Positions 1-35,382 of a DNA stretch of 39,164 nt are shown here, in pieces (position 1 is the first letter of the stretch; each line of letters opens with the position of its first letter). Origin of the DNA: an uncultured Saprospiraceae bacterium (GTDB lineage Bacteria; Bacteroidota; Bacteroidia; Chitinophagales; Saprospiraceae); contig CALCMV010000157.1 in the NCBI GenBank assembly GCA_937967535.1, positions 1-39,164 on the forward strand. The letters run 5' to 3'. The notes beneath the pieces were generated by a model. That model had not been told where the DNA came from and ran no database searches. It saw only the letters and a program-made list of their open reading frames with translations. The position numbers and the translations under genes were made by a program.

Positions 1-966
1 GGGATTGGTACGAGTCAGATTGAGCAAGTCATGGCTACGCAATGCCTCATTCAACCCAAACCAAAAACGATGCGGATTACGGTGGATGGCGACTTGCAAA
101 ATGGCGTATTGTCGAAAGATATTATTTTGTATATCATTTCAAAATTGACGACAAGCGGCGGTACGGGGTATTTTGTGGAATACACAGGTAGTGCGATTCG
201 TAGCCTTTCGATGGAAGCACGAATGACGATTTGTAATATGAGTATCGAAATGGGCGCACGCGGTGGCATTATCGCTCCCGACGAGGTGACTTTTGAGTAT
301 ATTAAAGGTAGAAAATTTGCGCCGCAAGGCGCAGAATATGAGGCGGCAGTAAGGCATTGGCGCACGCTGAAAAGTGACGATAATGCCGTTTTTGACAAGG
401 AATATCATTTTAAAGCGGAAGATATAGAGCCTATGTTGACTTACGGTACGAATCCGGGTATGGGCATTGGAATTTCCGAAAATGTACCAACATTAGAGGA
501 GACAGAAAATGCTAAATCGCTGCAAAAGTCACTGAATTACATGGCTTTAGAGGCAGGAGAGAATTTGCTTGGCAAGACGGTGAATTACGTATTCATCGGA
601 AGTTGTACCAATTCGCGGATTGAAGATTTGCGCTTAGTTGCCAATTATGTGAAAGGAAAACGTAAAGCAGATAATGTAAATGTCATGGTCGTACCTGGTT
701 CAAAACAAGTGGAAGCTCAAGCGATACGCGAAGGACTTGACAAGATATTGGAAGCAGCAGGATTTGAGTTACGCGAACCGGGTTGTTCGGCGTGTCTGGG
801 TATGAATGAGGATAAAATTCCGGCAGGAGAATATTGCGTTTCCACCTCAAATCGTAATTTCGAGGGCAGACAAGGACAGGGTGCGAGAACGATATTAGCC
901 AGTCCCCTAACAGCCGCCGCTACCGCAGTGGCAGGGAAAATCGTGGATGTGCGGGCATTGATGTGA
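1..966 (+). CDS. leuC: 3-isopropylmalate dehydratase large subunit (aconitase family), C-terminal ~320 codons; 5' end outside the window
   Basis: Frame 1 is open from base 1 ([10 protein letters not shown] precedes the track Met at 31). The translation carries LeuC/aconitase hallmarks: [22 protein letters not shown] and [12 protein letters not shown]. Stop TGA at 964-966. Confidence 0.93.
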
Positions 967-978
967 CCTTACGTTTTT

Positions 979-1018
979 CGATTTGTAGAGAAAATTCATG
1001 AATTTTCTCTACAAATCG
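979..1018. repeat. Perfect 40-bp palindrome (19-bp arms around a central AT)
   Basis: CGATTTGTAGAGAAAATTC (979-997) is the exact reverse complement of GAATTTTCTCTACAAATCG (1000-1018). It starts 13 nt after the leuC stop. Confidence 0.9.
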
Positions 1019-1078
1019 TGCAATGATTTTCAACCTACAAATTTGGAATTGTTAAATGTGTTTAGTTATAAGGTGAAT

Positions 1079-1109
1079 GGCAAATCTTTTTTGTCATTTG
1101 CCTTTTTTT
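1079..1109 (+). terminator. Rho-independent terminator candidate downstream of leuC
   Basis: 7-bp stem GGCAAAT (1079-1085) / ATTTGCC (1096-1102), 10-nt loop, then T7 (1103-1109). Confidence 0.55.
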
Positions 1110-1554
1110 ATGGGTTGGTCATCAATATCAATTCAAAATACTCGTTGTTGAGGTGTTCAAAATCTTGGTCGAATGTGATGAGTTGGGCATCGGCGAGGCT
1201 TGCTGTGGCAGCTATCCAGAGGTCGTTTTTGCCCATGTTGCGAGAAGACATTTTGAGGGGCTTATCTTTTAGTTTGCCTTGACTGAAGGCGTCTATTTCG
1301 GCGTATTTCATTACCATAGGCATGTATCGTATATCAACGGTAATGAAATCTTCGAGTGCATCATCTAGTAGTTGATTTCTTCTTTTGCCCCAATTATTTC
1401 TTAGACTCAATGCTTTAAGTTCACCAACACTTACGATAGAAATAAGGTTGGAAACTTCAGGACTCGACATGTTGAATCTTTCCTCAAGCTCTTTTTTAAA
1501 CTCATTATCGCGCAAGAATTTGAGTATAATATTGGTATCGAATAAGTAGGTCAT
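1108..1554 (-). CDS. PIN-domain ribonuclease, VapC-like toxin candidate
   Basis: 148 aa. The acidic residues are spaced as in PIN domains: LFDTN near the N terminus, SVGELK, NDLWIAATA and ITFDQDF. It starts 9 nt after the stop of the small upstream ORF. Confidence 0.82.
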   Translation of the reverse strand: MTYLFDTNIILKFLRDNEFKKELEERFNMSSPEVSNLISIVSVGELKALSLRNNWGKRRNQLLDDALEDFITVDIRYMPMVMKYAEIDAFSQGKLKDKPLKMSSRNMGKNDLWIAATASLADAQLITFDQDFEHLNNEYFELILMTNP

Positions 1555-1563
1555 TTCTATGTT

Positions 1564-1854
1564 TTAATCAAGCATCGCCAGTAACTCCTCTGTTGTTTGT
1601 GGAATGTCTAATTCGGCTGTTATTCTTTTCATTTTCTCCATATCAATCCCCGTATAATTTTGCTCCCTTGCCAGTTTTTCTAAGTCAAATTCTTCTTCGA
1701 CGTGCGTAAGATATTTGAGTACATCCTCGCCTTCGGGCAGTTCGGCTAAAGGTCCGAGTACTTTTGCGCTAATCTCATCTATGGTAGCCTCATCGTCCAC
1801 AGCATTGATGTAATTGATGATGCGCTCTTTTTTTGCTTTTAAATTTATTGTCAT
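1564..1854 (-). CDS. Small acidic protein, putative cognate antitoxin of the PIN protein
   Basis: 96 aa and strongly acidic. It lies immediately upstream of the PIN gene on the same strand (9-nt gap), the classic type II TA layout. I recognised no DNA-binding motif. Confidence 0.55.
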   Translation of the reverse strand: MTINLKAKKERIINYINAVDDEATIDEISAKVLGPLAELPEGEDVLKYLTHVEEEFDLEKLAREQNYTGIDMEKMKRITAELDIPQTTEELLAMLD

Positions 1855-1968
1855 ATTTAGTTGATTTTGAATAATACTCCTAACTTGTTTTTCATTCTTC
1901 TGCTAAAATAGGGTATTTTGATATGAAAAACAAATTAGGAGTGGGCGTGATATGGACAGAATTATTTA

Positions 1969-2361
1969 TCAGGGGGACGTTCCACAACTGTAATATCTCT
2001 TTGATGGAAGTGTAACATAGGTTGTTCCACAATCACAGACCTCAAATGAGACAGTTCCACCTTTGGGCTTTCTGGGACCTATTTCTTTGTATCGATACTC
2101 ATGACTTCCTGAAGGAGTTTCAATAACTGGAATTGAGCTTCTTGCTTCAATGTATTGTTCAGCATTATACTGCATATACAACATTAAATTATTTTTGTTT
2201 ATATTTTCAAAAATCACAGTGCCATAGTGATACCTCGCACATGGAGGCTTTGGTGGGTTTTTTACAGGAGGTTTTTGCACAGGAGCCCGTTGATTACATC
2301 CACTAATTATTATCAATAAGAAAAATAAAATTTGCCCCAAAAAACAATTGATTATTTTCAT
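1969..2361 (-). CDS. Small lipoprotein, unknown function
   Basis: I prefer the internal Met at 2359-2361. This gives MKIINCFLGQILFFLLIIISGC, a signal peptide with a lipobox cysteine, followed by a P/K-rich linker. Confidence 0.68.
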   Translation of the reverse strand: MKIINCFLGQILFFLLIIISGCNQRAPVQKPPVKNPPKPPCARYHYGTVIFENINKNNLMLYMQYNAEQYIEARSSIPVIETPSGSHEYRYKEIGPRKPKGGTVSFEVCDCGTTYVTLPSKRYYSCGTSP

Positions 2362-2472
2362 GTTATGATTTTCTGAATTAAAAAAAATGAGGAACAAGCC
2401 CAAAGCCCTTTCGGACTCGCCCCTCTAAACTATACAAAACATTCAATTGGAGTTTGTTTTACATCTTGATTG

Positions 2473-2988
2473 TCAACGAAACGAGTAACCAAAGGAAATC
2501 CCCGGAAGCGGAATAAAGAACGCTTCATTTTCCTGTTCCGGTCTTTTGATATTTCCTACGAAAGTGGCTAAACCTGCACGTATATTGAGTCCTCTGTCTT
2601 CGGGTTGGTATCGGAAGCCGAAAAACATATTTCCTGCGAGTCGCGGCTCGTTGTCAAATTTGTCGATGATGCCTATTCTACCATAGGTCATGCCCATGCC
2701 GAGTTCGAAGTACTTACCGTTGCGTCCTTGCAGATAATTCAATCCGACAGGAAAGGTGTAACCTTGAAATTGACCAAGATTGGCATAACCAAGTCCTACC
2801 CGAAATCCCGGACCATCTGCCGACTCGGTGAATCGCATATCGTAATTGAAAGTGACAAGTCCGCCCTGACCGAGTATTTCCATGTAGGTGGCAAATTGGG
2901 GAGTCGGGCGGTCTATATCTTGAGCGGATGTTGGAGTATACAGGGCGCATATCAGAGTTAGTGTGATTACAGTGATTATTTTTTTCAT
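2473..2988 (-). CDS. Small outer-membrane beta-barrel-like protein
   Basis: Start at the Met at 2986-2988 gives MKKIITVITLTLICALYTPTSAQ, a signal peptide. The rest alternates G/aromatic-rich strands (GFRVGLGY, FELGMGMTYG, FFGFRY) and has an aromatic-rich C terminus (ISFGYSFR). Confidence 0.62.
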   Translation of the reverse strand: MKKIITVITLTLICALYTPTSAQDIDRPTPQFATYMEILGQGGLVTFNYDMRFTESADGPGFRVGLGYANLGQFQGYTFPVGLNYLQGRNGKYFELGMGMTYGRIGIIDKFDNEPRLAGNMFFGFRYQPEDRGLNIRAGLATFVGNIKRPEQENEAFFIPLPGISFGYSFR

Positions 2989-3089
2989 GTGTTGATGTTT
3001 AGATTGTTTTGTTATCAGCATATTTTTTATTCAAAATAAAACTGGTATGGAGATATTTTGTGGTATTTAGAAACATCTAAATTAATTTG

Positions 3090-3539
3090 TCACCCAGCAG
3101 CAACTACTATAACAATGGCGATAATCAAACATAAAAACCCCAAAAGAGAAGACTTTAGAGCATTCCCACCAAATAAAATCGCAAGTAAAACTCCAATAGG
3201 ACCAAGAAAGAAACCGAGCATAAATCCACCTACATTAAAATTATTAGTGGCATTTTCGTACTCTGTTTTGGCATTAAAAAATGTTCCTTTTTTGATATTC
3301 TTTTTGATTTTACGCTGTGTTAGTTTGAAAACGACTTTATCTTTAAAAGTCAATTTCTTGCCTGTAGTTCTATTAATATCTGCTATACTCAAGCTAAGGA
3401 AATCTTGTATATTACTGACGCCGAATTCTTCTTGGAGGAAGGACTTTTGTGGATTGACAGATTTTATCACTGCCTCACTTTGTAAAGGAAATAAAATTAT
3501 TAGTGCGAATAATCCGATTATAATTTTTGTTTTTTTCAT
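3090..3539 (-). CDS. Exported/membrane protein, unknown function
   Basis: 149 aa. It has an N-terminal signal peptide (MKKTKIIIGLFALIILFPLQSEA), a K-rich middle and two C-terminal hydrophobic helices. The overlapping + strand ORF 3058..3555 is low-complexity and rejected. Confidence 0.68.
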   Translation of the reverse strand: MKKTKIIIGLFALIILFPLQSEAVIKSVNPQKSFLQEEFGVSNIQDFLSLSIADINRTTGKKLTFKDKVVFKLTQRKIKKNIKKGTFFNAKTEYENATNNFNVGGFMLGFFLGPIGVLLAILFGGNALKSSLLGFLCLIIAIVIVVAAG

Positions 3540-3606
3540 AATAATTATTTTTTAATTTGACAGAATATTTCTCATCATATCCAAATAGTATTTACAATCC
3601 AACTGA

Positions 3607-4020
3607 CTATTGTTTAGTAAGTTCTATCGTGCAGTAGGCATTACAAGAGCCTTTTGATGTTTTCAGCATACCGTCACCTCTAAATGCCAAACCGTCTTGA
3701 GTTAATTCCATCTCCATAGAGTTTACTGAACCAACACTATTGAGTCTTACTTTATCATATCCAATGTACCCTCCCTCATAGGCTTTCACACCTGTACTAC
3801 TCCCGACTGCACGCACCGTGACTTGACGATTGATGAAGTTGACATTCCATTGTTCAGTGTAAACGTCTCCCCGTCGTATATTTCTACAATTTGAATTTTG
3901 AGCAGATATTTTTGCTGTCCATGTACCTACTATTGGTGGCGGTGGCGGTGGTGGAATGTCAAAGCAACCTGAAAGAAAGACAACAGAAAAAAGAATAATA
4001 AAAGCTTTGAAAGTATTCAT
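3607..4020 (-). CDS. Small lipoprotein, unknown function
   Basis: Start at the Met at 4018-4020 gives MNTFKAFIILFSVVFLSGC (lipobox), followed by a poly-Pro linker (PPPPPPP). Confidence 0.68.
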   Translation of the reverse strand: MNTFKAFIILFSVVFLSGCFDIPPPPPPPIVGTWTAKISAQNSNCRNIRRGDVYTEQWNVNFINRQVTVRAVGSSTGVKAYEGGYIGYDKVRLNSVGSVNSMEMELTQDGLAFRGDGMLKTSKGSCNAYCTIELTKQ

Positions 4021-4137
4021 AATGTTATTTTTATTTATGATAAAAAAGTTTCGTATTCGCATAGACTTCTCCTGCCTCTCATTGCAGAGAAAGTCCAAAT
4101 TTTTATGATTTATAGAAATCAACTAAGTGGTATGTTG

Positions 4138-4551
4138 TCACTCATTAAGTGGCAGACAAGTTGTATCTTTTGGTGCTTCAGGTAGCTCATCAACAATATT
4201 AAATGGAATAGTATTATTAAACATAGTTCCACTACTTGCCGAATCACTAAATATACTACCCACGAGAAGCACATCAATAATCCACGAAGCCACAATAATA
4301 ATGGTAACGGAAGCGGCTACTCTCCCTGCGAATGTCAACTTTCGTGGTTGCTTCTTCTTTTGTTGGGCTTCAATATTGCAAAGATTGTCCTTAAATCCTG
4401 TATAACGTATGCTTTCGATAATGATGCGATATGCCTCTACTCTATATGCCAAATCGGTATCACTTTTCATCGTTTTTTCAAAAACAATACGGTTATCCGA
4501 TGTCATGTTGTTCTCAAGATATGCTTCAATTTGTTCATCTGTATAATGCAT
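4138..4551 (-). CDS. Single-pass membrane protein, anti-sigma factor candidate
   Basis: 137 aa. It has a helical N-terminal ~55 aa, a K-rich segment, one TM helix (AASVTIIIVASWIIDVLLVG) and a short external tail. It starts 33 nt after the sigma-factor stop on the same strand. No HxxxCxxC zinc motif. Confidence 0.5.
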   Translation of the reverse strand: MHYTDEQIEAYLENNMTSDNRIVFEKTMKSDTDLAYRVEAYRIIIESIRYTGFKDNLCNIEAQQKKKQPRKLTFAGRVAASVTIIIVASWIIDVLLVGSIFSDSASSGTMFNNTIPFNIVDELPEAPKDTTCLPLNE

Positions 4552-4584
4552 CAGTTTAAATTTAAATTCGTTTTCATCTCATCA

Positions 4585-5232
4585 TTATGCTGCGTCTAAT
4601 TGTTTTCCGAGTAAGCCGTATACATAGGATTTGAGTGGTGGATTATCATCAAATCCTTTTTTGAGTTTTTGTAAGGCGCGACATGCAGTAGTTTTTGCAC
4701 TATTGGGAGTCGTTTGTATTTCTTCTGCAATTTCCTTGTAACTCATCTGCCAATAAAATTTATTGATGAGTATTTTGCGTTCTTTCTCACTGATAATTTT
4801 GTCTAAAGAATCACTGACCTCCTCAAGTATCGCTGCCTCGATTTCTCCTTGTCTGTAATCGTCAAGCATAGCAGATAATTCGGGTAGTTGGCACTTGTCC
4901 ATGTAGGTCATAAAGCGTTCTTTTTCAAGTATTTTCAATAATTCGCCTCTACATGCTGTAAACAAATATTTTTCGTAGGCATGAGGTGTCTCCAATTCAA
5001 ACCCTTTTGTTTGGGCACGTCTGAACAACGAGTAACAGGCTCGCACAAAAGCATCATCTCCGTAGCGAGATATGGCTGCATTATTACTAAGATTATGTTT
5101 TACTTTATTCAATACTTTTACCTTCATTTTCATTATGAAATTGAGGGCTTCATTATAGTTTTTAGCATCCTTGGATTGTAATAGGTGATTGATACGTTTG
5201 ATTTTTTGGTGATGAAAATTTATTAATTTCAT
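4585..5232 (-). CDS. Divergent sigma-70 family (ECF-like) RNA polymerase sigma factor
   Basis: 215 aa. The C-terminal region-4 helix-turn-helix is MSYKEIAEEIQTTPNSAKTTACRALQKLKK. A region-2-like segment lies around DDAFVRACYSLF. The N-terminal ~50 aa are atypical. Confidence 0.72.
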   Translation of the reverse strand: MKLINFHHQKIKRINHLLQSKDAKNYNEALNFIMKMKVKVLNKVKHNLSNNAAISRYGDDAFVRACYSLFRRAQTKGFELETPHAYEKYLFTACRGELLKILEKERFMTYMDKCQLPELSAMLDDYRQGEIEAAILEEVSDSLDKIISEKERKILINKFYWQMSYKEIAEEIQTTPNSAKTTACRALQKLKKGFDDNPPLKSYVYGLLGKQLDAA

Positions 5233-5545
5233 AATGCTCCACTTAATGAATAGAAAGACTCAAATACCTTACTTTAATATCTCTAAATGAAGACCAACAT
5301 TTAAAATAGATGGGCTTTACTTAGATATGCCTGATTTTTAGGAAAAGGTTACAGGATGTTCTATTTTTTTATAAAAAAATTATAAACCACTAATTATCAA
5401 TAAGTTGTGTTTTTAGTATGATGAATGCGTTAGATAAATTTACCACATAAATCACATCAAAAAACAAAGAATATATAACAGGTAGGTTTGAGCATGTGAG
5501 AAGCATACTTTCGGGGGTAACTTGTAAAATGAAATATATATAAAC

Positions 5546-6289
5546 TTAGGTAAGACGGCTTAATAATCCCTTTTTGTAATGTCGGGAGACGGGCAGTTTC
5601 TTATCATTGGTCATTTCTACCCAATCGCCATCAGTTTTGATAAATTTATTGATATGATTTAGATTGGCTAAATAACCGTGATGAATACGGTAGAAATGAT
5701 AGCCTTCGAGTAGTTTTTGGACGAACTTGAGTTGACGAGAATAGGTTCTTTTTTCGTTATTGGTAAGGTATACGTGCGTATAATTGCCATCGGCTTCGCA
5801 GTAAATAATGCGCTCTGAGTCAATAAACTCGTGGCTTGATTGGGTAGAGAATGCTATTCTTTTGCGTGAATTTTTGGGGTTCATATTGTGCAATAATGTT
5901 TCGTAATATTGCTGGTGATTGTGTTTTGTCTGATGTTGTTTTATAAAGCGTTGAACGGCTTCGATGAGTTGGGTTTCATCAATCGGTTTGAGCAAATAAT
6001 CAATGGCACTAATTCGCAAAGCTTGTATAGCGTATTGATTGTGGGCAGTTGTAAAAATGACCCCGAAATTAATCTCTCCGATGATTTCGAGCATTTCAAA
6101 ACCATTCATGCCGGGCATATCTATGTCCAGAAAAATAACATCAGGTTGGTGTTTTCGGATACTTTTCGCGCCTTCTATTCCTGAATCGCAAGTGTCCACG
6201 ACTTCTATATCTGTGCAGTGCCGTTTGATTTCATCAAGGAGTATATTGAGTGCATCCTGCTCGTCGTCTATAATGATGGCTTTAAGCAT
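5546..6289 (-). CDS. LytTR-family response regulator
   Basis: I prefer the Met at 6287-6289 (MLKAIIIDDEQ). Receiver motifs are IIIDDE, DVIFLDIDMPGMNG and TAHNQYA. The C-terminal LytTR-type DNA-binding region contains IIYCEADGNYTHVYL. Confidence 0.9.
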   Translation of the reverse strand: MLKAIIIDDEQDALNILLDEIKRHCTDIEVVDTCDSGIEGAKSIRKHQPDVIFLDIDMPGMNGFEMLEIIGEINFGVIFTTAHNQYAIQALRISAIDYLLKPIDETQLIEAVQRFIKQHQTKHNHQQYYETLLHNMNPKNSRKRIAFSTQSSHEFIDSERIIYCEADGNYTHVYLTNNEKRTYSRQLKFVQKLLEGYHFYRIHHGYLANLNHINKFIKTDGDWVEMTNDKKLPVSRHYKKGLLSRLT

Positions 6290-6392
6290 TGGTCGGTGTG
6301 TGATAGTTTGTGTGTGAAGTAAATATATAAAAATTCTAAGCACCAAGTACCAAATTTCAATTCAAATGTATTTCTACATGATATTTGTTTGC

Positions 6393-11405: not shown

Positions 11406-13196
11406 CTAAAAACAATACTCATCCGCATCAATCAAGACTTGTGCGATACGACGACGTGCCGCTTTTGCATTGATACCTTCATACTTCGTAAAGCGACGCA
11501 AACCTTTGATAAGCAGCATCTTCTCATCGCCTTCTGCCCATGAACGGATGCAATTTCGGGCATTGAGCGCAATGCGTTCATTGGCATCACCTACAAATAC
11601 TTTTGCGATGTCAATTTGTGCTGCACAAGCCTCCTGACCACGCAAGCTAATAAGTTTTTCGACGCGCAAAATCACCGATTCTGCTACATAAATATCCATC
11701 ATCATATCCGAGAGATACATCAGGATTTCTTGCTCATCTTTGAGGGCTTGCATGAGTTTTTGTACCGTAGCTCCGGCGGTCATCAGGAAGGCTTTTTTCA
11801 AATCCTTCACCGCATGTTTTTCGTCTGTAAATACCGAGCCATTCGCGCCATGACCATTCGCCGAAGGCGGCGACATCAACTCTTGTTGCACTGCCATTGC
11901 GGGTGTCATAATATCAAGCGTACCCTTCATTGCACGTTTCATCAGCATATCAATAGAGAGCATACGATTGATTTCATTCGTCCCTTCAAAAATGCGATTG
12001 ATACGCGCATCGCGGTAGGCACGCGCCATCGGTGCTTCTTCCGAATAGCCCATACCGCCATAAATCTGCAAGCCTTCATCTACCACATAATCAAGCACTT
12101 CCGAACCCGCTACTTTGAGCAAAGCACATTCTACGGCGTATTCTTCTGCCGCACCGAGTAGGGCTTCACCATGAGATTTGCCTTCGGAGAGGAGTTGGTC
12201 TTCCTTTTCCTGAATATTGTCGCTGGCACGATACACCGCCGCTTCTACCGAATATATGCGAATTGCCTGCTCTGCGAGTTTGTGTTTTATTGCGCCAAAA
12301 TTGCTGATAGACTGCTTAAATTGCTGACGTTCATTCGCATATTTTATGGAAAAACCTGCTGCCATTTTAGCACCGCCAAGCGCACCTGCACCGAGTTTGA
12401 TGCGTCCGATATTGAGGATATTAAATGCAATGCGATGCCCTTTTCCAATCTGTCCCAATACATTTTCCACAGGTACTTTTACATTTTCAAAAAATATCTG
12501 ACAAGTCGAAGACCCTTTAATACCAAGTTTGCGCTCCTCTGCACCTCGCGATACGCCGTCCAATGCTGCTTCTACGATAAATCCGGTGAATTTGTCGCCG
12601 TCAATCTGTGCGAATACCACAAAAACATCAGCGATACCGCCATTGGTAATCCACATTTTCTGACCATTGATAATGTAATGTTTACCATCATCAGAAAGAA
12701 TCGCTTTCGTCTTTGCCGCAAGTGCATCCGAACCCGAACCCGGTTCAGTAAGGCAGTATGCCGCCTTCTTCACACCCGAAATGAGTTTGGGTAAATACTT
12801 CGCCTTCTGTTCTTCATTACCAAAATACAAAATCGGCAACATTCCGATACCCGTATGTGCGCCATGCGTCAGTGCGAATGACAAACCGTAAGACATCGTT
12901 TCGGTCAGCAACATATTCGTCAGAAAATCCTGTGCCGAACCGCCATATTCTTCGGGAAATGCTGTTCCCAACAAACCCAATTCACCCGCTTCTTCGAGCA
13001 GTTTTTTGAGCAAGTCAAGGTTGTGCTTTTCCAACTCTGCATCTACAGGGCGGACTTTTTGTTCGATAAAATCCTTCGCCATATCTGCAACCATACGTTG
13101 CTCCTCATTAAACTCTTCGGGAATAAATACGCTTTCTGCGAGTGTTTCAGCGACGAGAAATTCTGCGCCGCCGAGTATTTTCTGTTGTAATTCCAT
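11406..13196 (-). CDS. Long (596 aa) acyl-CoA dehydrogenase family protein
   Basis: ACAD motifs are YCLTEPGSGSDA, WITNGG and QIYGGMGYSEE, plus a ~180-aa C-terminal extension as in the long FadE-type enzymes. Confidence 0.92.
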   Translation of the reverse strand: MELQQKILGGAEFLVAETLAESVFIPEEFNEEQRMVADMAKDFIEQKVRPVDAELEKHNLDLLKKLLEEAGELGLLGTAFPEEYGGSAQDFLTNMLLTETMSYGLSFALTHGAHTGIGMLPILYFGNEEQKAKYLPKLISGVKKAAYCLTEPGSGSDALAAKTKAILSDDGKHYIINGQKMWITNGGIADVFVVFAQIDGDKFTGFIVEAALDGVSRGAEERKLGIKGSSTCQIFFENVKVPVENVLGQIGKGHRIAFNILNIGRIKLGAGALGGAKMAAGFSIKYANERQQFKQSISNFGAIKHKLAEQAIRIYSVEAAVYRASDNIQEKEDQLLSEGKSHGEALLGAAEEYAVECALLKVAGSEVLDYVVDEGLQIYGGMGYSEEAPMARAYRDARINRIFEGTNEINRMLSIDMLMKRAMKGTLDIMTPAMAVQQELMSPPSANGHGANGSVFTDEKHAVKDLKKAFLMTAGATVQKLMQALKDEQEILMYLSDMMMDIYVAESVILRVEKLISLRGQEACAAQIDIAKVFVGDANERIALNARNCIRSWAEGDEKMLLIKGLRRFTKYEGINAKAARRRIAQVLIDADEYCF

Positions 13197-13302: not shown

Positions 13303-13354
13303 AAAAAAGCAATGCACGCATTGTAAAATATAATGCGTGCATTGTATTTTTTTT
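13303..13354. terminator. Strong hairpin with flanking A- and T-runs (bidirectional terminator candidate)
   Basis: 13-bp perfect stem CAATGCACGCATT (13310-13322) / AATGCGTGCATTG (13332-13344) with a 9-nt loop. A6 lies upstream and T8 downstream. Confidence 0.7.
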
Positions 13355-13389
13355 AAATGGTTATTGATAATGAATAACTTGTGTAAATG

Positions 13390-13415
13390 AAAAAACCTTC
13401 TCCAAATGGAGAAGG
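13390..13415 (-). terminator. Rho-independent terminator of the T9SS metalloprotease gene
   Basis: 8-bp stem CCTTCTCC (13396-13403) / GGAGAAGG (13408-13415) with a 4-nt loop. On the minus strand it is followed by T6 (13390-13395). It lies 24 nt after the stop at 13439. Confidence 0.75.
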
Positions 13416-13438
13416 CGCATGTTTTGATATTGTTTGTT

Positions 13439-15922
13439 TTACTTGACTTTAACTACTTTTGTAGCAGTTTTAACTCCATTAATCACATATTCATACAGAT
13501 ATATACCATGAGGCAAATCCGAAATGTCATGAGTAATGTAGTGTGTGCCGGAATCAATTATGTTATCATCAATTAATGTGCGTATTTGTTGACCTTTTAT
13601 GGTATAGATGAAAGCAGATACCCTTGATTCGTTCAACAATTCTATATGAAGTGTGAGATAGTTATTGGCAGGATTGGGAGATATGTTCACCTCCTGTTCG
13701 TTGACAATGCCAGGTTCGTATTGTTTTTCTACGACCTTAAAAATACAGGAACTCGAAGCTGCTATTTCGATGTCGGGATTGGTGGCTTCGTGGGTAATCA
13801 TAAATTCCACGCCTGTATCTCTATCACTTCTCGGTGCCAGCAAATCACAAGCCTGAATACTGATGACTTCCCTCTGATTGGCATCCAATGGTATATTCAT
13901 CATGCTTGCGTGTTGTGGGTCTGTTACTCTTACGGTTCTTTCATCCACGACCTCTACACCTTCACTTGATTGTCCGGTGGATGACCAGCGATTCCATATT
14001 TCTTCATTAGTTGTCACCTCAATGCCAACAATTTCATTCATACCAATATCAGAAATACCGTCAAGATTGATATTTATACTGGTAGCAAAAGGGTTATTAT
14101 TATCCACTAAAATACTTACACTGCTACCACATGGTTCTGGGTCAGCTAATCCGGGAACTTCAACGATAAAGGTATTTCTGGTCACGATATTATTGTTGTT
14201 GTATATGCCGTATCCAATGTCTGTTCCGATTTTTTCAGTAAAAATCGGGTCTTTATCAGAGTGGATTCTTGCTAATAAACAAACCATAAATTTCCCTTGA
14301 TTCTCATTCATTTCAATACCGCAGGACAATAGATTATCAATGAGCGGAGGTGTCCAGTTGTGTTCAAGAATTATCTCGGCATTGGGCGCTAATGCACCGA
14401 TAGGAATAGGCGAAGATGTAATGATATCACCCACTAAGCAACCGCCTTCATTGGAGTTTATCCAATCGGAATCCCATATTTCTCCGGTGCTGCCTATTGT
14501 CCAGTAAAAGTCTAAATAACCATTTTCGGCATCACAATCGTCAGAGAGGTTGCGTATGCGGGCTTTGACGGTATTCGATTCTCCTTCTGAAGGCATCTCG
14601 TGATTGGTGCCACAATCGAATGATATATGGTCGCAGTTCCATAAATCAGGACTTAGGTAGATATCTTTGAAGGTACAGCTTGGTTCGTTATCTATAATGG
14701 CGTAGTTAGGTTCATCGCCTACATCTTCTAAGTCATCCCGCATCGCATAATCTCCTGTTTGGTTGGGGACAAAAACTGGATTGCAGGTACTTGTGCTACT
14801 GAATTGGAAAGCTTCTAATGCGCCTGCTAAGTCATCCTCTATGATTTCTGTATGATAGACTCCTTCAGATATTCCCACGACACCTGGTCGCATCAAATCA
14901 AACCTTGTCTCTCCGATTCCTTTTTCGGTATGTTCTAGCCCCGCAGCATGACCGAATTCATGTAGTATGATTGAGTAAATCTCATCACTAGAGTTTTCGT
15001 CAGTTATTGTGGATAATATACCAATATTAACTTCATTATACTCGTGATAAATGCCACAATCTACGCCTCTACTTACTGCATAGGCTGTTTGTGAATCAAT
15101 ATAAGTTATTGAAGATACTCCATTTCCCCGAACCTCCTCTAACCCATCTACTACGTCCGCAATACGCCAATCAATACCAGTTGCACATCTCCAGTCTTTT
15201 ATTGCCTGATTAATATGTCCCATTAACTCGCAGTTTTGAAAAACCTCCGTGCTAACATATAAATTTCTATAACCCGTATTTTCTGCTACGATTTTTACTC
15301 TTTTTTTATTGTTAACAATCCCTGTATCATTATTACAGTCTACTGTCATAGCAACTGAATATGGTATATTGAGATAGTTGGCATCAGTTATCTCAGAAGA
15401 CATATTCAGCGAGTTATTCACTTGGAATTTACCACTATGTGGTCTCTCTTCACTATAAAAAATCTCGAAGGGTTCTTCACCTAGGTCTACATGAAAATCA
15501 CACACCTGACTTGGTAGAACAACATCAATATAATTTTCTGTCCATATAGCATTATTTAAATCATAATTATCTAATTCGATATAGTCATTATTAATATCGG
15601 TTCCAGCGAACATATCCCGTATAAATTCAATTCTAATGCCACCTGTCGGGGGACTGTCTCCAAAAAATCTCCCTTCAATGATAAAATGGGCATCAACGCC
15701 CGCAGGCACAAATGCAGTATAATTGTCAATAAGTACTTGGCACACCGGAAACTGCATAGAACTATCAGAGAAGTCTAGATTATCATATTGCTGAAAGTTG
15801 GTATTACTCGCATCATCTGCATTGGGCGTATAAAATGCTCTGTTTTCCCATAATGACGAATTCGGATGATCTTCAAATAAAATATCAGAAGTGGTAGCTG
15901 CACCGCAATCAGGAATCTTCAT
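13439..15922 (-). CDS. T9SS-secreted metzincin-type zinc metalloprotease, downstream segment of a frameshift-split gene (frame open up to 16399)
   Basis: 827-aa track ORF. The metzincin motif HEFGHAAGLEH (HExxHxxGxxH) is encoded at 14930-14962. The last ~80 aa (ISPNPANNYLTLHIE...INGVKTATKVVKVK) look like a type A T9SS sorting domain. There is no signal peptide at the track Met. The same frame continues upstream for 159 codons without an ATG. Confidence 0.85.
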   Translation of the reverse strand: MKIPDCGAATTSDILFEDHPNSSLWENRAFYTPNADDASNTNFQQYDNLDFSDSSMQFPVCQVLIDNYTAFVPAGVDAHFIIEGRFFGDSPPTGGIRIEFIRDMFAGTDINNDYIELDNYDLNNAIWTENYIDVVLPSQVCDFHVDLGEEPFEIFYSEERPHSGKFQVNNSLNMSSEITDANYLNIPYSVAMTVDCNNDTGIVNNKKRVKIVAENTGYRNLYVSTEVFQNCELMGHINQAIKDWRCATGIDWRIADVVDGLEEVRGNGVSSITYIDSQTAYAVSRGVDCGIYHEYNEVNIGILSTITDENSSDEIYSIILHEFGHAAGLEHTEKGIGETRFDLMRPGVVGISEGVYHTEIIEDDLAGALEAFQFSSTSTCNPVFVPNQTGDYAMRDDLEDVGDEPNYAIIDNEPSCTFKDIYLSPDLWNCDHISFDCGTNHEMPSEGESNTVKARIRNLSDDCDAENGYLDFYWTIGSTGEIWDSDWINSNEGGCLVGDIITSSPIPIGALAPNAEIILEHNWTPPLIDNLLSCGIEMNENQGKFMVCLLARIHSDKDPIFTEKIGTDIGYGIYNNNNIVTRNTFIVEVPGLADPEPCGSSVSILVDNNNPFATSININLDGISDIGMNEIVGIEVTTNEEIWNRWSSTGQSSEGVEVVDERTVRVTDPQHASMMNIPLDANQREVISIQACDLLAPRSDRDTGVEFMITHEATNPDIEIAASSSCIFKVVEKQYEPGIVNEQEVNISPNPANNYLTLHIELLNESRVSAFIYTIKGQQIRTLIDDNIIDSGTHYITHDISDLPHGIYLYEYVINGVKTATKVVKVK

Positions 15923-16359
15923 TTTGACATGGCAAAGTGAGATAGGTGATGTTCCAACTTGTGTACGTATAGGAAAGGGGGTGGAATCATTAATAGATGT
16001 AACAATTCTGAAATATTTCTTATTGCCAATATCAGGTAAGTCTTCTATAGCAGGTGGATAATATGCAGATTCGGATACTAAGACATCTCCCCGGGTTACT
16101 ATAATGTCACCATTTGATACATTGAAGCCTGAACCGAAAGATGTGGGATTGTAAGTTAGGACAACTACTCCGGCATCGAAGTAGGTAAGTGTATTATTGG
16201 CTTGAAGGCTAACATCAAATTCAAGGAATGTTGTACCATTTGCTTTTGTATACCTCTCATTTTCAAAAATGTATATTAAGTCATTTACACCACTCTTTGA
16301 GGTGTTATTTCCAGAAAGACAGTTTAATCTGTCTTTTATTATCGCATCAAGTTCTTGAT

Positions 16360-17151
16360 TTAATGCTTGGTTTTGGTATTTGTTGGGAGTTTTTTTTTCT
16401 CAAATTGTTTTTTAGTTTCTTGTTGAGTTTTCCATTTCAGATAACTTCTAGGTCTTTCAAGATTTTGATTAGTAATATCTTTTATAGATGTCGTTTCGAG
16501 AGAAAGGATAAAGCTATATAAGTCGTTTACGCTTTTAAAACTTCCCTTGACTCCGGTTTCATTTACCTTAAAACCATAATATACTGCATCGGGAACACTA
16601 TTCCAATATCCCCCTTCAATTATTGTATGCGGATAGCCTAAGTTTATCACTTTCATGTTAGTAAGTTCGATTTCACTACCAATTTTAAGTGATAAGATGT
16701 GGTTATTAGGTAATTGTTTATTGTCTGAAATAACGAACGTACTTGTAGTACCTATTTTTGTAAGTTTCGGAGTATATTCATGCTCTTTCTTTTGACCATG
16801 TCCATCATAGGTTATCCGAGTTCTTGGATTGCCATTATGTATAAATTCAACAACATTTGTGTCAAAGTCACCTTTAAATATCTTATGAATTTGATATTTA
16901 TTGACAATTATAGGCTGTCCATCTTCTGTAATGTCCTTGTAACTTTCAATACAACTTGCTTCAAAGACATATGAAGCTTTATTGATTTCCTCTGCAAGCA
17001 CCTTTTCAGGGTTTTCATGTTTTTTTTGATGTGGAAAATGATGTGCGCTCAAAAAATTAAAGCAGCAAATCATCAAAAAAGCGAGTAGAAACCATCTAGT
17101 GGTTGTGCATGGTTGTGCATGGTTGTGCATGGTTGTTTTAATTAAATTCAT
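16360..17151 (-). CDS. N-terminal segment (signal peptide plus ~230 aa) of the frameshift-split T9SS metalloprotease gene
   Basis: 263-aa track ORF with a signal-peptide-like RWFLLAFLMICCFNFLSA. It ends at TAA 16360-16362, shortly after the A9 run. A -1 shift there joins it to the 13439..16399 frame. Confidence 0.75.
   Translation of the reverse strand: MNLIKTTMHNHAQPCTTTRWFLLAFLMICCFNFLSAHHFPHQKKHENPEKVLAEEINKASYVFEASCIESYKDITEDGQPIIVNKYQIHKIFKGDFDTNVVEFIHNGNPRTRITYDGHGQKKEHEYTPKLTKIGTTSTFVISDNKQLPNNHILSLKIGSEIELTNMKVINLGYPHTIIEGGYWNSVPDAVYYGFKVNETGVKGSFKSVNDLYSFILSLETTSIKDITNQNLERPRSYLKWKTQQETKKQFEKKKLPTNTKTKH
16390..16398 (-). other. A9 homopolymer (minus strand) at the junction of the two ORF segments; slippage/frameshift site
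   Basis: T9 on the + strand at 16390-16398. It lies inside the only 40-nt overlap (16360-16399) between the upstream and downstream open frames. Confidence 0.85.
17101..17136. repeat. 10-bp tandem repeat GGTTGTGCAT x3.6 (minus strand ATGCACAACC) inside the first codons of the 16360..17151 ORF
   Basis: Three perfect units (17101-17130) plus GGTTGT. Each unit carries an ATG on the minus strand. Only the ATG at 17128-17130 is in the ORF frame. Confidence 0.9.
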
Positions 17152-29057: not shown

Positions 29058-32000
29058 ATGAAGCAGGTTTATACTTTACTATTACTCCTTTTATTTGCCC
29101 TGACAATTGTTTCAAATGCTCATGCACAATGCGATGCAGTCATTCTCACGCCTGACCAAACGGAAGTTTGTGACAACTTCTTCATGGTCTCCGCACAAGA
29201 ACCGGCAGGCAACTTTACCGGACAATGGACAGGTCCGGGCAATACCTCTTTTGCTGATGAAAACAGCCCAAGTACTTTCATCACCAATCTCAATCCCGGA
29301 CCCAATACCGTCGTTTGGTCTATATTCGATGCAAGTGGAACGATATGCAATAGTATGTCCATTACACTCATCAATAATGAAGTCACGACCACGCCTATCA
29401 TCACCACCGACAATAATCAGGAAGTGTGTGATGAAAACAATTTTCAGATTGCCGCCAATACCAACCTCAATCCCGGCGAAGTCGGTTCATGGTCGTCCAA
29501 TATTCCCGGCGTTACGTTTTTACCGAACGTTAATAACCCAAATGCCACTGCAAACAATCTCGCTCCCGGCAATAATGTCATTTTCTGGACGATAAGAAAA
29601 GAAGGTTGCTCTGCCAATCCTGCCTCTATCACCGTCATCAATAATGAGGTGATTACAGAGCCTGAAATAGAGCCTTTTTCCGTACTTATCAGTTGCGAAA
29701 CCGATGGCTTCGACGATATATTTGCCAATCTCACCAATCAACTCATTCCCGGCGAAACGGGTACTTGGACAGGACCTCCTGGGGTTACTTTCTCGCCCAA
29801 TTCCGAGTCACCGACCATTGACGGTTTATTGCCCGGTGCCAATGAACTCACATGGACCATCTCGCGTGGCGGATGCCCTGTCAAAACGACTTCCGTTACC
29901 CTCGTCAACGATATGGTAATGACTGATGCTCAAATACTTACGAGCGCACAAGAAGTTTGTGATGAAAATGATTTTAGCATAGAAGGAAATACACCCGCCA
30001 ATGGCGAAACAGGTACATGGACAGGACCCGCAGGTGTCACCTTCTCCGACCCGAATAGCCCGACCAGCACCGTCAACGGCTTACAACCCGGTGATAATGA
30101 AATTTGCTGGACGATTTCACGCGGCAATTGTCCGCCTACACAAGCCTGCGTCATCATCACCAATAATGAAGTGACGACCACATCTAGCATCTCTACTGCC
30201 GATGGACAAGAAGTTTGTGATGAAAATGGCTTCATGGTTTCTGCCAATGCACCCGCACCCGGCGAAACGGGAACTTGGAGTGGACCCGCCGGAGTGACTT
30301 TCATGCCCAATGCCAATTCGCCTGATGCGACTGTAAATAATTTGCCATCCGGCACCAGTACTTTATGTTGGACGATAACACGCGGCGGATGTGATGATAC
30401 TGCAACGGAATCATGTATTGATGTAACAAATAATGAAGTCAACACTACCGCAGCCATCTCCACACAAAACGGACAAGAAGTTTGTGATGAAAACGGTTTT
30501 ATGGTTTCTGCAAATACACCTGCGAGTGGTGAAACAGGAACTTGGAGTGGACCCGCCGGAGTGACTTTCATGCCCAATGCTAATTCGCCTGATGCTACGG
30601 TAAATAATTTGCCACCCGGCACCAGCACACTGTGTTGGACGATAACACGCGGTGGCTGCGACGATACAGCAACGGAAGCCTGTATAGAAGTCACCAATAA
30701 TGAAGTAACCAGCGTTTCAGCCATTGGCACTGCCAACGGACAGGAAGTATGTAATGAAGATAATTTTGCTGCCGATGCCAATGTACCCGCAGACGGCGAA
30801 ACCGGAACTTGGTCAGGACCTCCGGGTGTTACTTTCAGCCCCAATGCCAATGCACCAAGCGTTGTGGTCAATGGTTTGCCGACAGGCACGAGTACTTTAT
30901 GTTGGACTATCACACGCGGCGGATGCGATGATACGACGAGCGAATCTTGTATTGATGTAATGAATAATGAAGTTCTCACGCAATCCGCAATCGCCACCAC
31001 TTCCGGGCAGGAAACTTGCGACAGCGATACTTTTATGGTAGAAGGCAATGCCCCGCAAGGCAACGAAACCGGAACGTGGACAGGACCTCCGGGTGTTACT
31101 TTTGACCCGAATGAAAATTCTCCAAACGCTACCGTCATTGGTTTGCCGCTTGGTACAAGTACACTCACATGGACGATTTCAAATGGTGGCTGCCCTGCTA
31201 CTTCTGCCGAAATTTCTGTACTCAATAACGAACCCACCCAACCCGAAATATCTACTTCGGGCGGACAAGCAATTTGCGATATTGAGAGTTTTACATTAGA
31301 AGCGAATACCCCGGCAACAGGCGAAACAGGCGTTTGGACAGGTCCGGCGGGCGTGATTTATTTACCAAATATAAATTCACCAACGGTAACAGTCAGCAAT
31401 TTGCCACCGGGAGATAATGATTTTACTTGGACAATTTCGCAAGGCGGATGCAGCCTTTCGGATGTGGTGACGGTCACAACATTTAGTACGCCCGTAGGCA
31501 CGACCACCATTTCTGATGTTACGGTGGTAGATGGTAATGATGGTGAAATCGCTATTTGCATCAACGGCGGTACTTCTCCCTACGATGTCACTTGGATGCC
31601 GAATGAGGGAGACCTTGCCCCCGTTGCCGGTCCTTGCGATGCCAATTTTGAAATAACGGGCTTGACCGAAAATGTATATACCATATTTATAACAGATGCC
31701 AACGGCTGTAATGACACTATTCCGAATGTAGCTGTCAGCGGACCTATTTGCGACAACTTCAATATCGGACTCGTAACAACAGTTGGCGAAACCTGCAACG
31801 ATACACAAGACGGTAGTATCACGATTGAAGTACTTGGCGCACAAGGCGATATTACTTATTCGATTGGCAACGGTATTCCCGATGTCACAACTTCCGACAA
31901 TCCCTTTACATTCACCGATTTACCCGCAGGTTCTTACAATCTTTTTGTACAAGATGAACGCCTTTGTCCCGATTCGTTTATCAGCAATCCCGTTGTCGTA

Positions 32001-35000
32001 ACCGAACCTAATCCATTGACTGTCAGTACATCTGTAACGGATTTGGGTACGATTGGCGGCTCGGATGGTGCGGTTTGTATTACGGTAGAAGGTGGTACTG
32101 CGCCTTATACGATTACCTCCGATTGTGGTACGGTGATGTCGGGGGCAGGTTCGTGTGGAGGCGATTTTCACATACCCAACCTAATGGATGTTACTTGTGA
32201 AATTACGATTGTGGATGCTACGGGTGAATGTACGGTAATGACCTCTGCAACGGTCAGCCCGCCCACTTGCGACCTTAGCATTAATGGCGACCCGATTGTT
32301 TCTCAAGTCAATTGTTTTAATGGAAATGATGGTAGTATCACAGTAAATGCTTCAAGTATGGGCGGCGGTATTCAATATTCGATTGATGGCGGAGATACTT
32401 TTATGTCAGGTGCGAGTCCTTTTACTTTTGATAATTTACCTGCCGGAACGTATAATTTGGTCTTGGGAGATGCGCTGAATTGTATGACTTCTTTTGCGAA
32501 TAATCCAATCGTACTCAATAATCCCCCCGAACTTATTGTCACCACAGATACGATACGTACCACTACGGTAGGTGGCAATGATGGTATCATTGATATTTGT
32601 ATTATGGGCGGTACGCCCAATTTTACGGTTGAATATACGCCCAATACCGGATTCTTGACTTCGGTACAAGGCAACTGCGATGCCAATTTCCAAATTCTCG
32701 GACTCATCGAAGGGCAATACGACATCACCGTAACCGATGCCAATGGTTGTGTATTCAATATTAGCGAGACAGTGGAAGGACCGGATTGTTCTTCATTTAC
32801 GATAGGACAGGTATTGGCAGAAAATGAATCTTGCAATGAAGCGGACGATGGTAGCATTACGATTGAAGTTTTGAGCGCAATTGGTGAAATTACTTATTCG
32901 GTAGGCAATGGTATTGAAGATGTTGTGACGAATACCAATCCGTTTACCTTTGAAAATTTGCCTGAAGGAGAATATATTGTATTTGTGGTAGATGAAGTGG
33001 GTTGTTCCAATTCATTTATCAGTAATCCGGTCATCATTACCGCACCCGAAGCATTATCCTTGAGTGCAGATTTGACGAATGTTTCTGTTTTAGGTGGTTC
33101 GGATGGTGCAATCGAAATTAGCGTGACAGGTGGTACAGGACCTTTTACAGCAATCATCAACGGTGCTTCGCAAATGACAAGTGCAGACGGTAATTTTGTT
33201 TTTTCAAATTTACCCGCAGGAGAATATGAAATCGTGGTAACGGATGCGAATGGTTGCGAAATTAGCACTACACAAACCCTCAACGACCCTTCATGTGTAT
33301 TGGAGGTAACGGATGTAATGACCACTCCCGCCTCATGTGCAGGCTTCGCGGATGGTACGATTACAATTACTTCAACAAGTGATAATCCGCCCATCGAATA
33401 TACTATTGATGGTGTGAATTTTCAAGCATCCAATGTCTTTACCGGTTTGACTGCCGGCGAATATACTATCGGTATCAGCGATGCGGTCAATTGTACGGCG
33501 ACCTTTAGCGGCAATCCCGTTGTGGTCGGCGAACCTGCGGCTTTGAATATATTGCCTACGATTTTGAATGTCTCAGCATTAGGTGCTAACAACGGACGTG
33601 TGATTTTGTGTATCAATGGCGGTTCACCCGATTATACAGTCAGCATTGACCCGCCTGCGGGAACGATTACGGAGACCATGGGTAGCTGCGATGCCGACTT
33701 TGAAATTACCGATTTGCCACCGGGCGAATATGTCGTTACGATAAGCGATGCGAATGGTTGTGAAGTCATAATTGACGCGCCTATCGAAGAGCCGGATTGT
33801 TCCGGTTTTATGGTCACGGATGTTATTCCGATGGATAATAATTGTAATGTCAGCAGCCAATCCAATCCCGACCCCGATGGTACGATTGAAATTTTTGTGA
33901 CAGGAGGCGAACCACCTTATGATTACTCCATTTTCGGCGGTGCCAATTCGATTAATTTTGCAGATACTTCCTTCCTTTTTACAGGTTTGAATGTCGGAAC
34001 ATACACCATTTTGGTGACGGATGCGAGTAACTGTGCGGTGGGTTTTGTAGAAACCGTCGAAATCGGCGAACCTGAATTATTGGTCGCGCCTCCGACCATC
34101 ATCGAACCGAGTGTAGTCGGTGCCAGCGATGGTGAAATTTGTCTGAGTCCTTCCGGTGGTATTCCGCCTTATACGGTGATGGCGAGTTGTGGTACGGTCA
34201 TCGAGGGTCCGGGGCAGCAATGCGGTGGCGATTTCCATATCGCAGGGCTTTCGGCAGGGCAATGCGACATCCTCGTGATAGATGCAAATCTCTGTGAGGC
34301 GAGTGGTACGATTATCTTGGAAGACCCGCCTTGCGACCAATTTGGTATCTCGGCAGTCAGTTCAGAAAATGCTTGTTTTGGTGTGGCAGATGGCGAAATT
34401 ACGATTAATATTATGGGAGGTATACCGCCTTACCAATATTCTACGGATGGTGGTGCCACTACGCAGACCAGCAATGATATGTCCTTTACATTCAGTGGAT
34501 TGGCTCCCGGAACTTACGATATTTTTGTATCGGATATGGTGCTGTGTACCGAAGATTTTGCCGACCAAATTGTGATAGAGGAAATTGCTGAATTTGAGGT
34601 AGATGCAGGTATGGATGCCACCGTCGAAATCGGGGAATCCATTGAACTCAACGCCACTTCGAGCGAAGCGGGCGACTACGAATGGATGCCCGCAGATGAT
34701 TTGGATGACCCCTTCTCTGCCAATCCTACCGCGACTCCTATGGATGTTGGAGATATTACTTACGAAGTCACCCTCACTACACCCGATGGCTGTACAGCTA
34801 GCGACGAGGTGAGAATTACGGTAGAAGACAATAGTACCGTAGTAGTGCCAACGGGTTTTACACCAAATGGAGATGGTAATAATGATACGTTTTTCCCTGA
34901 AATCAATGGGAATGTGGATGTACTTTCATTTACGGTATGGAATCGCTGGGGCGAAAAAGTCTACGACAATCCTGCACCTCCGGGTTGGGATGGCACTTAT

Positions 35001-35352: not shown

Positions 35353-35382
35353 AAAAAAAAACGTGCGAGCAAGCTCGCACGT
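35353..35382 (-). terminator. Rho-independent terminator of the cadherin-like T9SS protein gene
   Basis: GC-rich stem ACGTGCGAGC / GCTCGCACGT (35361-35382), followed on the minus strand by a T8-9 run (A-run at 35353-35361 on +). Confidence 0.85.

Follow-up and report, generated by a model that had tools for sequence, protein, structure and literature searches.

The DNA stretch analysed here (the window) comprises 39,164 nt of contig CALCMV010000157.1 (GCA_937967535.1; ~40% GC) from an uncultured Saprospiraceae bacterium. Its minus strand carries two open reading frames (ORFs) that overlap, the first encoding a signal peptide and the second a metzincin protease domain and a type IX secretion system (T9SS) C-terminal sorting domain (CTD), which meet at a run of nine A residues (A9). 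A preliminary description of this locus proposed that the two ORFs are a single gene joined at the run by a -1 shift or by one additional A. Re-reading the sequence confirmed the positions it gave for the ORFs, the A9 run and the TAA and TGA stops, as well as the 40-nt overlap of the frames and the 1237-codon fusion. The division of export signals between the two ORFs, with the signal peptide upstream and the T9SS CTD downstream, also supports its one-gene proposal.

Standard decoding yields a protein made up of the signal peptide, an N-terminal domain (N-domain), a Lys-rich linker and a 9-residue tail, LPTNTKTKH, encoded after the A-run. On the minus strand the junction reads CAA TTT GAG AAA AAA AAA CTC CCA ACA AAT ACC AAA ACC AAG CAT TAA. 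Inserting one A at the run gives, by computed translation, an uninterrupted 1237-aa product with the trans-frame peptide ...QFEKKKTPNKYQNQALNQE. In the downstream frame the first ATG, GTG or TTG occurs at 15922, from which an ORF of 827 aa is called. It is preceded by 159 start-less codons, a segment that encodes the peptide YQNQALNQELDAIIK upstream of any possible start codon.

The fused product matches the Por_Secre_tail family PF18962 with 30 bits (cutoff 27, residues 1157–1233) and TIGR04183 with 25.2 bits (cutoff 23). The metzincin zinc-binding motif and the candidate Met-turn occur in the window protein in that order, and the motif is kept in the orthologues. The window protein scores 17.7 bits against the peptidase M10 family PF00413, under the cutoff of 24, and homologues of the same architecture (P0013, P0014, P0017 and P0022) exceed that cutoff with 26.9–35.3 bits. 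The Kyte–Doolittle maximum over 15 residues is 2.35 at the N terminus of the upstream ORF versus 0.07–0.47 at the N termini of the downstream ORFs. By hydropathy, a signal-like hydrophobic N terminus is present only on the upstream ORF, and hence on the fused product but not on the downstream ORF alone.

Table 1 Features of the split protease gene and its flanks (window positions; fused residues are those of the 1237-aa product).
Feature	Position	Strand	Basis or remark
0-frame ORF (product of standard decoding), 263 aa	16360..17151	-	orthologous ORFs 239-258 aa
Predicted Sec signal peptide, residues 1-36, hydrophobic core WFLLAFLMICCFNFLSA, cleavage site inferred	17044..17151	-	hydropathy; AlphaFold2 (AF2) helix 16-34
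N-domain, beta-rich, residues ~45-225	16477..17019	-	profile search, Pfam scan of matches, AF2
-1-frame TGA closing the downstream frame	16400-16402	-	
A9 run (T9 on the + strand), candidate recoding site	16390..16398	-	A9 at homologous position in orthologues
40-nt overlap of frames, where the shift must occur	16360..16399	-	bounded by TGA and TAA
0-frame TAA, nine codons past the A-run	16360-16362	-	
-1-frame coding region, 986 codons + stop	13439..16399	-	linker, beta-rich domains, metzincin domain, T9SS CTD
Predicted hairpin 1, GCAUUAAAUC...ACUUGAUGC, stem includes the 0-frame stop	16344..16366	-	23 nt 3' of the A-run
Predicted hairpin 2, AAAGACAG-AUUAAA-CUGUCUUU	16312..16338	-	51 nt 3' of the A-run
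Zinc-binding motif HEFGHAAGLEH (HExxHxxGxxH), fused residues 731-741	14930..14962	-	
Candidate Met-turn DLMRP, fused residues 752-756	14885-14899	-	
T9SS type A C-terminal sorting domain, fused residues 1157-1233	13454..13684	-	PF18962, TIGR04183
Terminator-like hairpin and T-run, immediately past the gene's stop codon	13395..13416	-	

Conservation of the junction in related lineages

We compared the junction across 12 contigs from JGI, ENA and Logan assemblies, which represent five diverged lineages: the window, L001–L005 with L010, L006 with L008, L007, and L011/L012. The L001–L005 gene is identical between assemblies, and L010 is a deletion variant of it. L006 is identical to L008, which is part of a 140-kb contig belonging to an uncultured Saprospiraceae metagenome-assembled genome. 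Samples in which these contigs occur include SRR5754787, ERR9287619, SRR25749193 and JGI 3300027509. A search with the fused protein retrieved close homologues of 853–973 aa that start just past the junction (MIGDRL...), and a search with the upstream ORF retrieved their partner ORFs of 239–258 aa. At the DNA level every orthologue has the same layout, namely the ORF encoding the N-domain (N-ORF), exactly nine A residues, a 0-frame stop nine codons further on, and a long ORF in the -1 frame. Both the exact A9 and the -1 offset are common to all five lineages, in which amino acid identity to the window is 57–80% for the long ORF and 50–79% for the N-ORF.

Pairwise synonymous divergence (dS, Nei–Gojobori) among the five lineages ranges from 0.5 to saturation (above 2). 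The ratio of nonsynonymous to synonymous divergence (dN/dS) is 0.17–0.37 in the N-ORF, 0.09–0.29 in the start-less segment between the A9 run and the window's first ATG, and 0.11–0.14 in the remainder of the long ORF. Because the frame break is common to all five lineages, this divergence accumulated with the break already present, and the low dN/dS on both sides of it therefore indicates that both halves have been translated throughout.

In L006/L008 the A9 run sits in another codon phase, GAA AAA AAA AGC rather than GAG AAA AAA AAA CTC. Retention of exactly nine A residues in a different phase thus points to selection on the run itself, not on a Lys-Lys-Lys sequence or on a 7-nt heptamer. 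About one A9 is expected by chance in the window and two are seen; a single A9 in 39 kb is unremarkable. It is the conservation of the A9 at the junction in all orthologues, not its presence, that exceeds chance in these sequences. The run at 16390–16398 is the sole A/T run of at least nine within any open frame of the window, and no other such run was found within open frames of the window, L003 or L008 contigs. Thus, these assemblies give no indication of a general tendency to break genes at homopolymers.

Several further features of runs and junctions were seen in this set. The second A9 of the window, at 35353–35361, is intergenic, between a 2015-aa ORF (29058–35105, plus strand) and an ORF at 35454–36599 (minus strand). 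The N-ORF also contains an in-frame A8 (17020–17027, minus strand; CAT CAA AAA AAA CAT) near the start of the mature N-domain (HQKKHE), which becomes A7 in L001 and L007. In L010 (Ga0209186_1011321, 2380–2800) an L001-type locus retains the N-ORF and the A9 and lacks ~2.8 kb of the downstream ORF: the sequence reads ..GATGCGATGATA, followed by a short diverged fragment and then by the neighbouring exosortase gene. This is either a natural deletion variant that would make the short product only or an assembly artefact. The 1.1-kb ENA contigs L011 and L012 (junction at L011 859–867), two assemblies that agree, carry a mosaic gene. Their N-ORF is ~50% identical to that of the window, the first 40 nt past the A9 match the window at 95% identity, and beyond +80 nt the sequence is 100% identical to L007, a pattern that suggests recombination or N-domain swapping near the slippery site.

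Probable recoding at the A9 run and alternative explanations

We consider it very probable that the locus forms a single gene in which a programmed recoding site, of whichever kind, is conserved at A9, and we favour transcriptional slippage, with moderate confidence, as the main mechanism. While RNA polymerase copies the T9 template of the A9 tract, it would occasionally let the nascent RNA realign, so that one untemplated A is added. Unslipped A9 mRNA would yield the 263-aa secreted protein that ends at the TAA nine codons past the run. A10 mRNA would bring the 986 downstream codons into frame and yield a 1237-aa precursor consisting of the signal peptide, N-domain, Lys-rich linker, beta-rich domains, metzincin protease and T9SS CTD. 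The long form alone would bear both export signals, the Sec signal at its N terminus and the T9SS CTD at its C terminus. The efficiency of slippage would set the ratio of the products, a free N-domain together with a smaller amount of full-length protease. We infer both this product ratio and the placing of the slip at RNA polymerase rather than at the ribosome.

The preference for slippage has four grounds: (i) the A9 is exact in every lineage, (ii) it is kept in two codon phases, (iii) no stimulator was found at the spacing typical of programmed ribosomal frameshifting (PRF), and (iv) unassisted slippage on A9 requires no other signal. Bacterial RNA polymerase slips efficiently on 9-nt runs of A or T, and runs of this length are used in Thermus thermophilus dnaX (A9) and in Shigella mxiE and spa13 (PMC1088944, PMC5009743, PMC3711429). 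Two distant members of the family, L014 (A9) and L020 (A8G), also have a poly-A junction with the same -1 requirement in this linker. The short product is itself a plausible functional entity because stand-alone N-domain proteins are common.

Several observations weigh against slippage or temper the comparative evidence. The A10 transcript and the ~135-kDa product are predictions from sequence, and the protein database searched, which derives from assemblies, contained no fused protein of A10 origin. An in-phase A_AAA_AAA heptamer is present in both codon phases of the run, and a ribosomal -1 shift on it would give an identical protein. The L020 junction has the classic A_AAA_AAG heptamer in phase. 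Moreover, every out-of-frame case needs the same -1 direction, and a uniform direction of shift is the PRF heuristic of Antonov et al. Ribosomal frameshifting may contribute or even dominate. The five close lineages represent one evolutionary origin, not five, and some of the assemblies may reuse the same raw reads. Finally, AAA accounts for ~80% of Lys codons in these genes, so that AAA AAA AAA is not very improbable; an argument for conservation of the run from Lys codon usage, which we also considered, is weak for this reason.

The preliminary description had listed transcriptional slippage among four explanations, and it remains the best fit; that list, however, omitted -1 ribosomal frameshifting on the in-phase A_AAA_AAA. 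In this alternative, tandem slippage of tRNA-Lys on unslipped A9 mRNA would produce the same 1237-aa fusion. We regard it as rather unlikely to be the principal mechanism but as a serious competitor. Both arrangements of the run present an X_XXY_YYZ heptamer in the 0-frame phase, all observed cases need a -1 shift, and the in-phase A_AAA_AAG of L020 is the shift site of Escherichia coli dnaX (PMC5009743). Two hairpins are also predicted 3' of the run. Their z-scores are -4 to -5 in three lineages, and three pairs of hairpin 2 are changed on both sides among five sequences, although this covariation is weak. Against this, hairpin 1, the nearest to the run, is in the predicted structure too distant for a canonical -1 PRF stimulator; no stimulator was found at the canonical 5–9 nt 3' of the run, and the downstream hairpins are weak in L001 (z -0.9) and L006 (z -0.7). 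The 72 nt 5' of the run are no more structured than shuffled sequences (z -0.8 to +0.9), no conserved Shine–Dalgarno-like (GGAGG-like) element was found upstream of the run, and no Rfam frameshift element matched the junction. An unstimulated A_AAA_AAA heptamer is usually inefficient, which we count against ribosomal frameshifting. Furthermore, seven A residues would suffice for this mechanism, yet exactly nine are kept in two phases.

We consider it improbable that the run is a phase-variable contingency tract, one of the options in the preliminary description, in which slippage of DNA polymerase would switch between A9 (OFF) and A10 or A7 (ON) and a subset of cells would express the protease. 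For such switching the classic setting is a coding homopolymer in a gene for a secreted or surface protein (PMC3711429), and minority alleles are invisible to consensus assemblies. The idea is nevertheless weakened by the absence of any length polymorphism: all 12 contigs, from five lineages, have A9 and none has an ON length. Among 5.8 billion proteins, the fused 1237-aa query retrieved split products only (827–973 aa), with no in-frame protein of ~1237 aa, and the N-ORF query retrieved products of 239–263 aa only and no fused form. Purifying selection has also acted through saturating synonymous divergence while the consensus is OFF, and conservation of a run across homologues argues for its use at the RNA level (Baranov et al.).

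A still less probable alternative is gene fission, in which an N-domain gene would be followed by a separate protease gene of ~971 aa that starts at an ATG 16–18 nt past the 0-frame stop and is expressed by translational coupling or reinitiation. The preliminary description had regarded genuinely separate orthologues, each with its own start and a downstream signal peptide, as evidence against a single gene, and had asked whether orthologues form one uninterrupted ORF. On the first point, gene callers do split all the orthologues, because an in-frame ATG (the Met of ..DAMI..) occurs 16–18 nt past the 0-frame stop in four of the five lineages, and stand-alone N-domain genes exist elsewhere. The window, however, has ATA at the site of this ATG, followed by 159 codons without ATG, GTG or TTG, and the available sequence of L014 likewise contains no start codon past its junction. 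The N termini of the downstream products are non-hydrophobic and no downstream half shows a signal peptide by hydropathy, even though these products end in a T9SS CTD and T9SS cargo first crosses the inner membrane via Sec, for which it needs a Sec signal peptide (PMC11285876). In every lineage the -1 frame is already open at the A-run. The region from the run to the ATG shows conservation at the protein level and can be aligned with single-ORF homologues. On the second point, all close orthologues are split at A9, but distant homologues are uninterrupted. P0005 and P0006 (~25% identical) are single ORFs, as are P0013, P0014, P0017 and P0022 from a profile search. All six have a signal peptide, N-domain, M10 domain and Por_Secre_tail, and their alignments extend over both flanks of the junction; the ancestral state was therefore a single contiguous protein.

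No terminator-like site was found between the two ORFs, and the presence of a terminator-like hairpin only after the long ORF is consistent with a single transcription unit. Given the start-less segment in the window, the lack of a signal-like N terminus and this hairpin position, independent expression of the downstream half is unlikely. The region past the gene (13309–13416), between it and a convergent or adjacent acyl-CoA dehydrogenase-like ORF (11406–13196), contains two hairpins, a 17-bp perfect hairpin at 13309–13345 followed by T8 and a bidirectional terminator-like hairpin at 13395–13416. An Rfam match to sau-5971 over the same interval (29 bits against a threshold of 90) is probably meaningless. 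No tRNA genes were found in the 39-kb window.

An artefact or decay, that is, a homopolymer miscall of a true A10 or a recent inactivating frameshift, is effectively refuted as judged from the sequences: homopolymers are error-prone on some platforms and the singletons L014 and L020 may individually carry assembly errors, but the sequencing error and the fresh pseudogene envisaged in the preliminary description are excluded, respectively, by the identical A9 and offset across 12 contigs from independent assemblies, in five diverged lineages (with no other A/T run of at least nine inside open frames of the window, L003 and L008 contigs) and by two intact halves with dN/dS of 0.09–0.37 at a dS of 0.5 to saturation.

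The Lys-rich linker and the N-domain in the wider family

Many family members have an A-rich sequence in this linker, and poly-A runs occur there both out of frame and in frame. In L014 (Logan SRR23287133, 1290–1541; protein P0039), whose N-domain is very distant (~21% identical), the N-domain gene ends at an A9, GAATGGATT-A9-CTAAAG (TGG ATT A9 CTA), and the -1 frame runs on into an IPT/TIG-like segment without a start codon. The end of this contig is Illumina adapter sequence (AGATCGGAAGAGCACACGTCTG). L020 (Ga0348266_1000483, 4040–4200) comprises a 214-aa N-ORF and, in the -1 frame, an 808-aa ORF with LTD, M10 and CTD domains. These meet at CTT AAA AAA AAG ATG, an A8G that carries A_AAA_AAG in phase and needs a -1 shift. 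It is the -1 frame that encodes the conserved linker helix, and 47 nt upstream there is another in-frame A9 (4066–4074). A search found no relatives of P0039; L014 and L020 each stand alone as one contig, and either may contain an assembly error.

Other family members keep such runs in frame. L015 (GCA_031373665.1, JANMMZ010000011.1) has two paralogues at one locus (96–3071 and 4001–4801). The full-length paralogue is a 991-aa single ORF with an in-frame A9 in the same linker (758–766), where slippage would truncate the product in a dnaX-like manner, and the second is a 266-aa protein with the N-domain only and an in-frame A9 (4663–4671). L013 (TB_GS10_10DRAFT_10001476, 576–6337) has tandem single-ORF paralogues, P0006 and P0005, of ~930 aa each, with the architecture N-domain, M10, CTD; the linker of P0005 has an in-frame A8. 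The L013 genes also contain in-frame T9 and A10 runs elsewhere, and long runs seem to be tolerated in this genome of 33% GC. Taken as sequences, these junctions suggest that slippage recurs at the linker, with either polarity.

A profile search with the N-ORF found 194 relatives. The N-domain is N-terminal in many single-ORF T9SS M10 proteases, and it also occurs on its own, in many secreted proteins of ~200 aa with unrelated genes downstream of their own. Sequence searches of the N-domain against Pfam, NCBIfam and the PDB gave nothing above threshold. An initial AF2 model based on a 6-sequence alignment was unusable (pLDDT 49), and a model from an 80-sequence alignment (pLDDT 82.5) is a beta-rich module. 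Its match of highest probability in a Foldseek search of the PDB is the agrin NtA domain (probability 0.97, TM 0.41, E 0.09, which is not significant), followed by the C345C domain of C3 (0.89) and TIMP-1 (0.87); all E values are at least 0.09 and no match reached E <= 0.001. Alignment of the N-domain profile with TIMP-1 and TIMP-2 by hhalign, for which approximate TIMP sequences were used, is weak (P 0.03–0.04, 0.03 for TIMP-2, versus 0.25 for an SSB control), and Pfam NtA matches to the N-domain are below threshold only. In TIMPs the mature N-terminal Cys (the CxC wedge) chelates the zinc of the protease. A TIMP-type N-terminal Cys is absent from the N-domain proteins, whose predicted mature N termini are HHFPHQ.., QCYPPQ.. 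and RDFSFF.. The modelled fold may be an NTR/TIMP-like oligonucleotide/oligosaccharide-binding (OB) fold, which we treat as a lead only. The free N-domain would possibly act as a pro-domain, chaperone or inhibitor of the protease.

A tentative and somewhat doubtful extension of these observations is that the linker acts as a 'slippery joint', with poly-A kept in frame (L015, L013) or out of frame (the window clade, L014, L020), and a single gene would thereby give two products in a set ratio: a free TIMP/NTR-like N-domain, as periplasmic inhibitor or chaperone, and a full-length zymogen exported by the T9SS. If so, the two-product logic of dnaX would be applied here to the self-control of a protease, and this would be the first programmed recoding described for a T9SS cargo and for Saprospiraceae.

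Comparison with known recoded genes

To our knowledge, outside mobile elements, prfB and dnaX, there are few chromosomal bacterial genes with comparative evidence for frameshifting or slippage. Our literature search found no paper linking the T9SS with slippage and no such recoded gene that is a T9SS substrate. The family offers natural controls in the form of five out-of-frame orthologues, in-frame paralogues and single-ORF relatives, and it would provide a clean system for the efficiency of unassisted A9 slippage in Bacteroidota. It also raises the question of why cells would produce the N-terminal domain in free form beside a secreted protease. Annotation pipelines split the gene into two 'hypothetical proteins', of which the one with the CTD appears to lack a signal, and other seemingly signal-less T9SS cargoes probably conceal similar recoding sites.

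Among known systems, phase variation of Mycoplasma p78 likewise involves a poly-A tract within the gene of an exported protein; in the present case, unlike p78, polymorphism of tract length was sought in the 12 contigs and the 5.8 billion proteins and was not found. In Buchnera and Blochmannia, according to the work cited in PMC5009743, genes interrupted at A-runs remain functional through slipped transcripts, as we propose here. In those hosts the phenomenon extends to many genes and stems from genome erosion under weak selection, whereas the protease is a single gene of a free-living lineage under purifying selection, with no other coding run of at least nine in the contigs examined. The window shares with the -1 PRF of E. 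coli dnaX and of IS3-family elements an A-rich, in-phase X_XXY_YYZ, the -1 direction and a trans-frame fusion. It differs from them in having neither a stimulator at 5–9 nt nor an upstream Shine–Dalgarno-like element, and in a run that exceeds the heptamer and is kept at nine in two phases.

The tau and gamma products of T. thermophilus dnaX are a closer parallel, with an A9 on the sense strand, no obvious stimulator and two products whose ratio is determined by slippage. The long dnaX product is encoded in frame and is truncated by slippage, so that the polarity in the window is reversed; the in-frame A9 of the L015 paralogue represents the dnaX-like arrangement within the protease family. 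The closest functional analogues are mxiE and spa13 of Shigella flexneri (PMC1088944, PMC5009743), with the difference that the window is known from sequence alone. In both of these genes, as proposed for the window, overlapping ORFs are joined by one untemplated nucleotide at a run of ~9 bases, standard decoding gives a short product and slippage the long functional one, and the gene is tied to a protein secretion system. The window differs from them in its Bacteroidota host, in encoding a T9SS cargo of another protein family rather than a component or regulator of a type III secretion system, and in the extent of what slippage would add, an extension of 986 codons that carries both the catalytic and the sorting domains.

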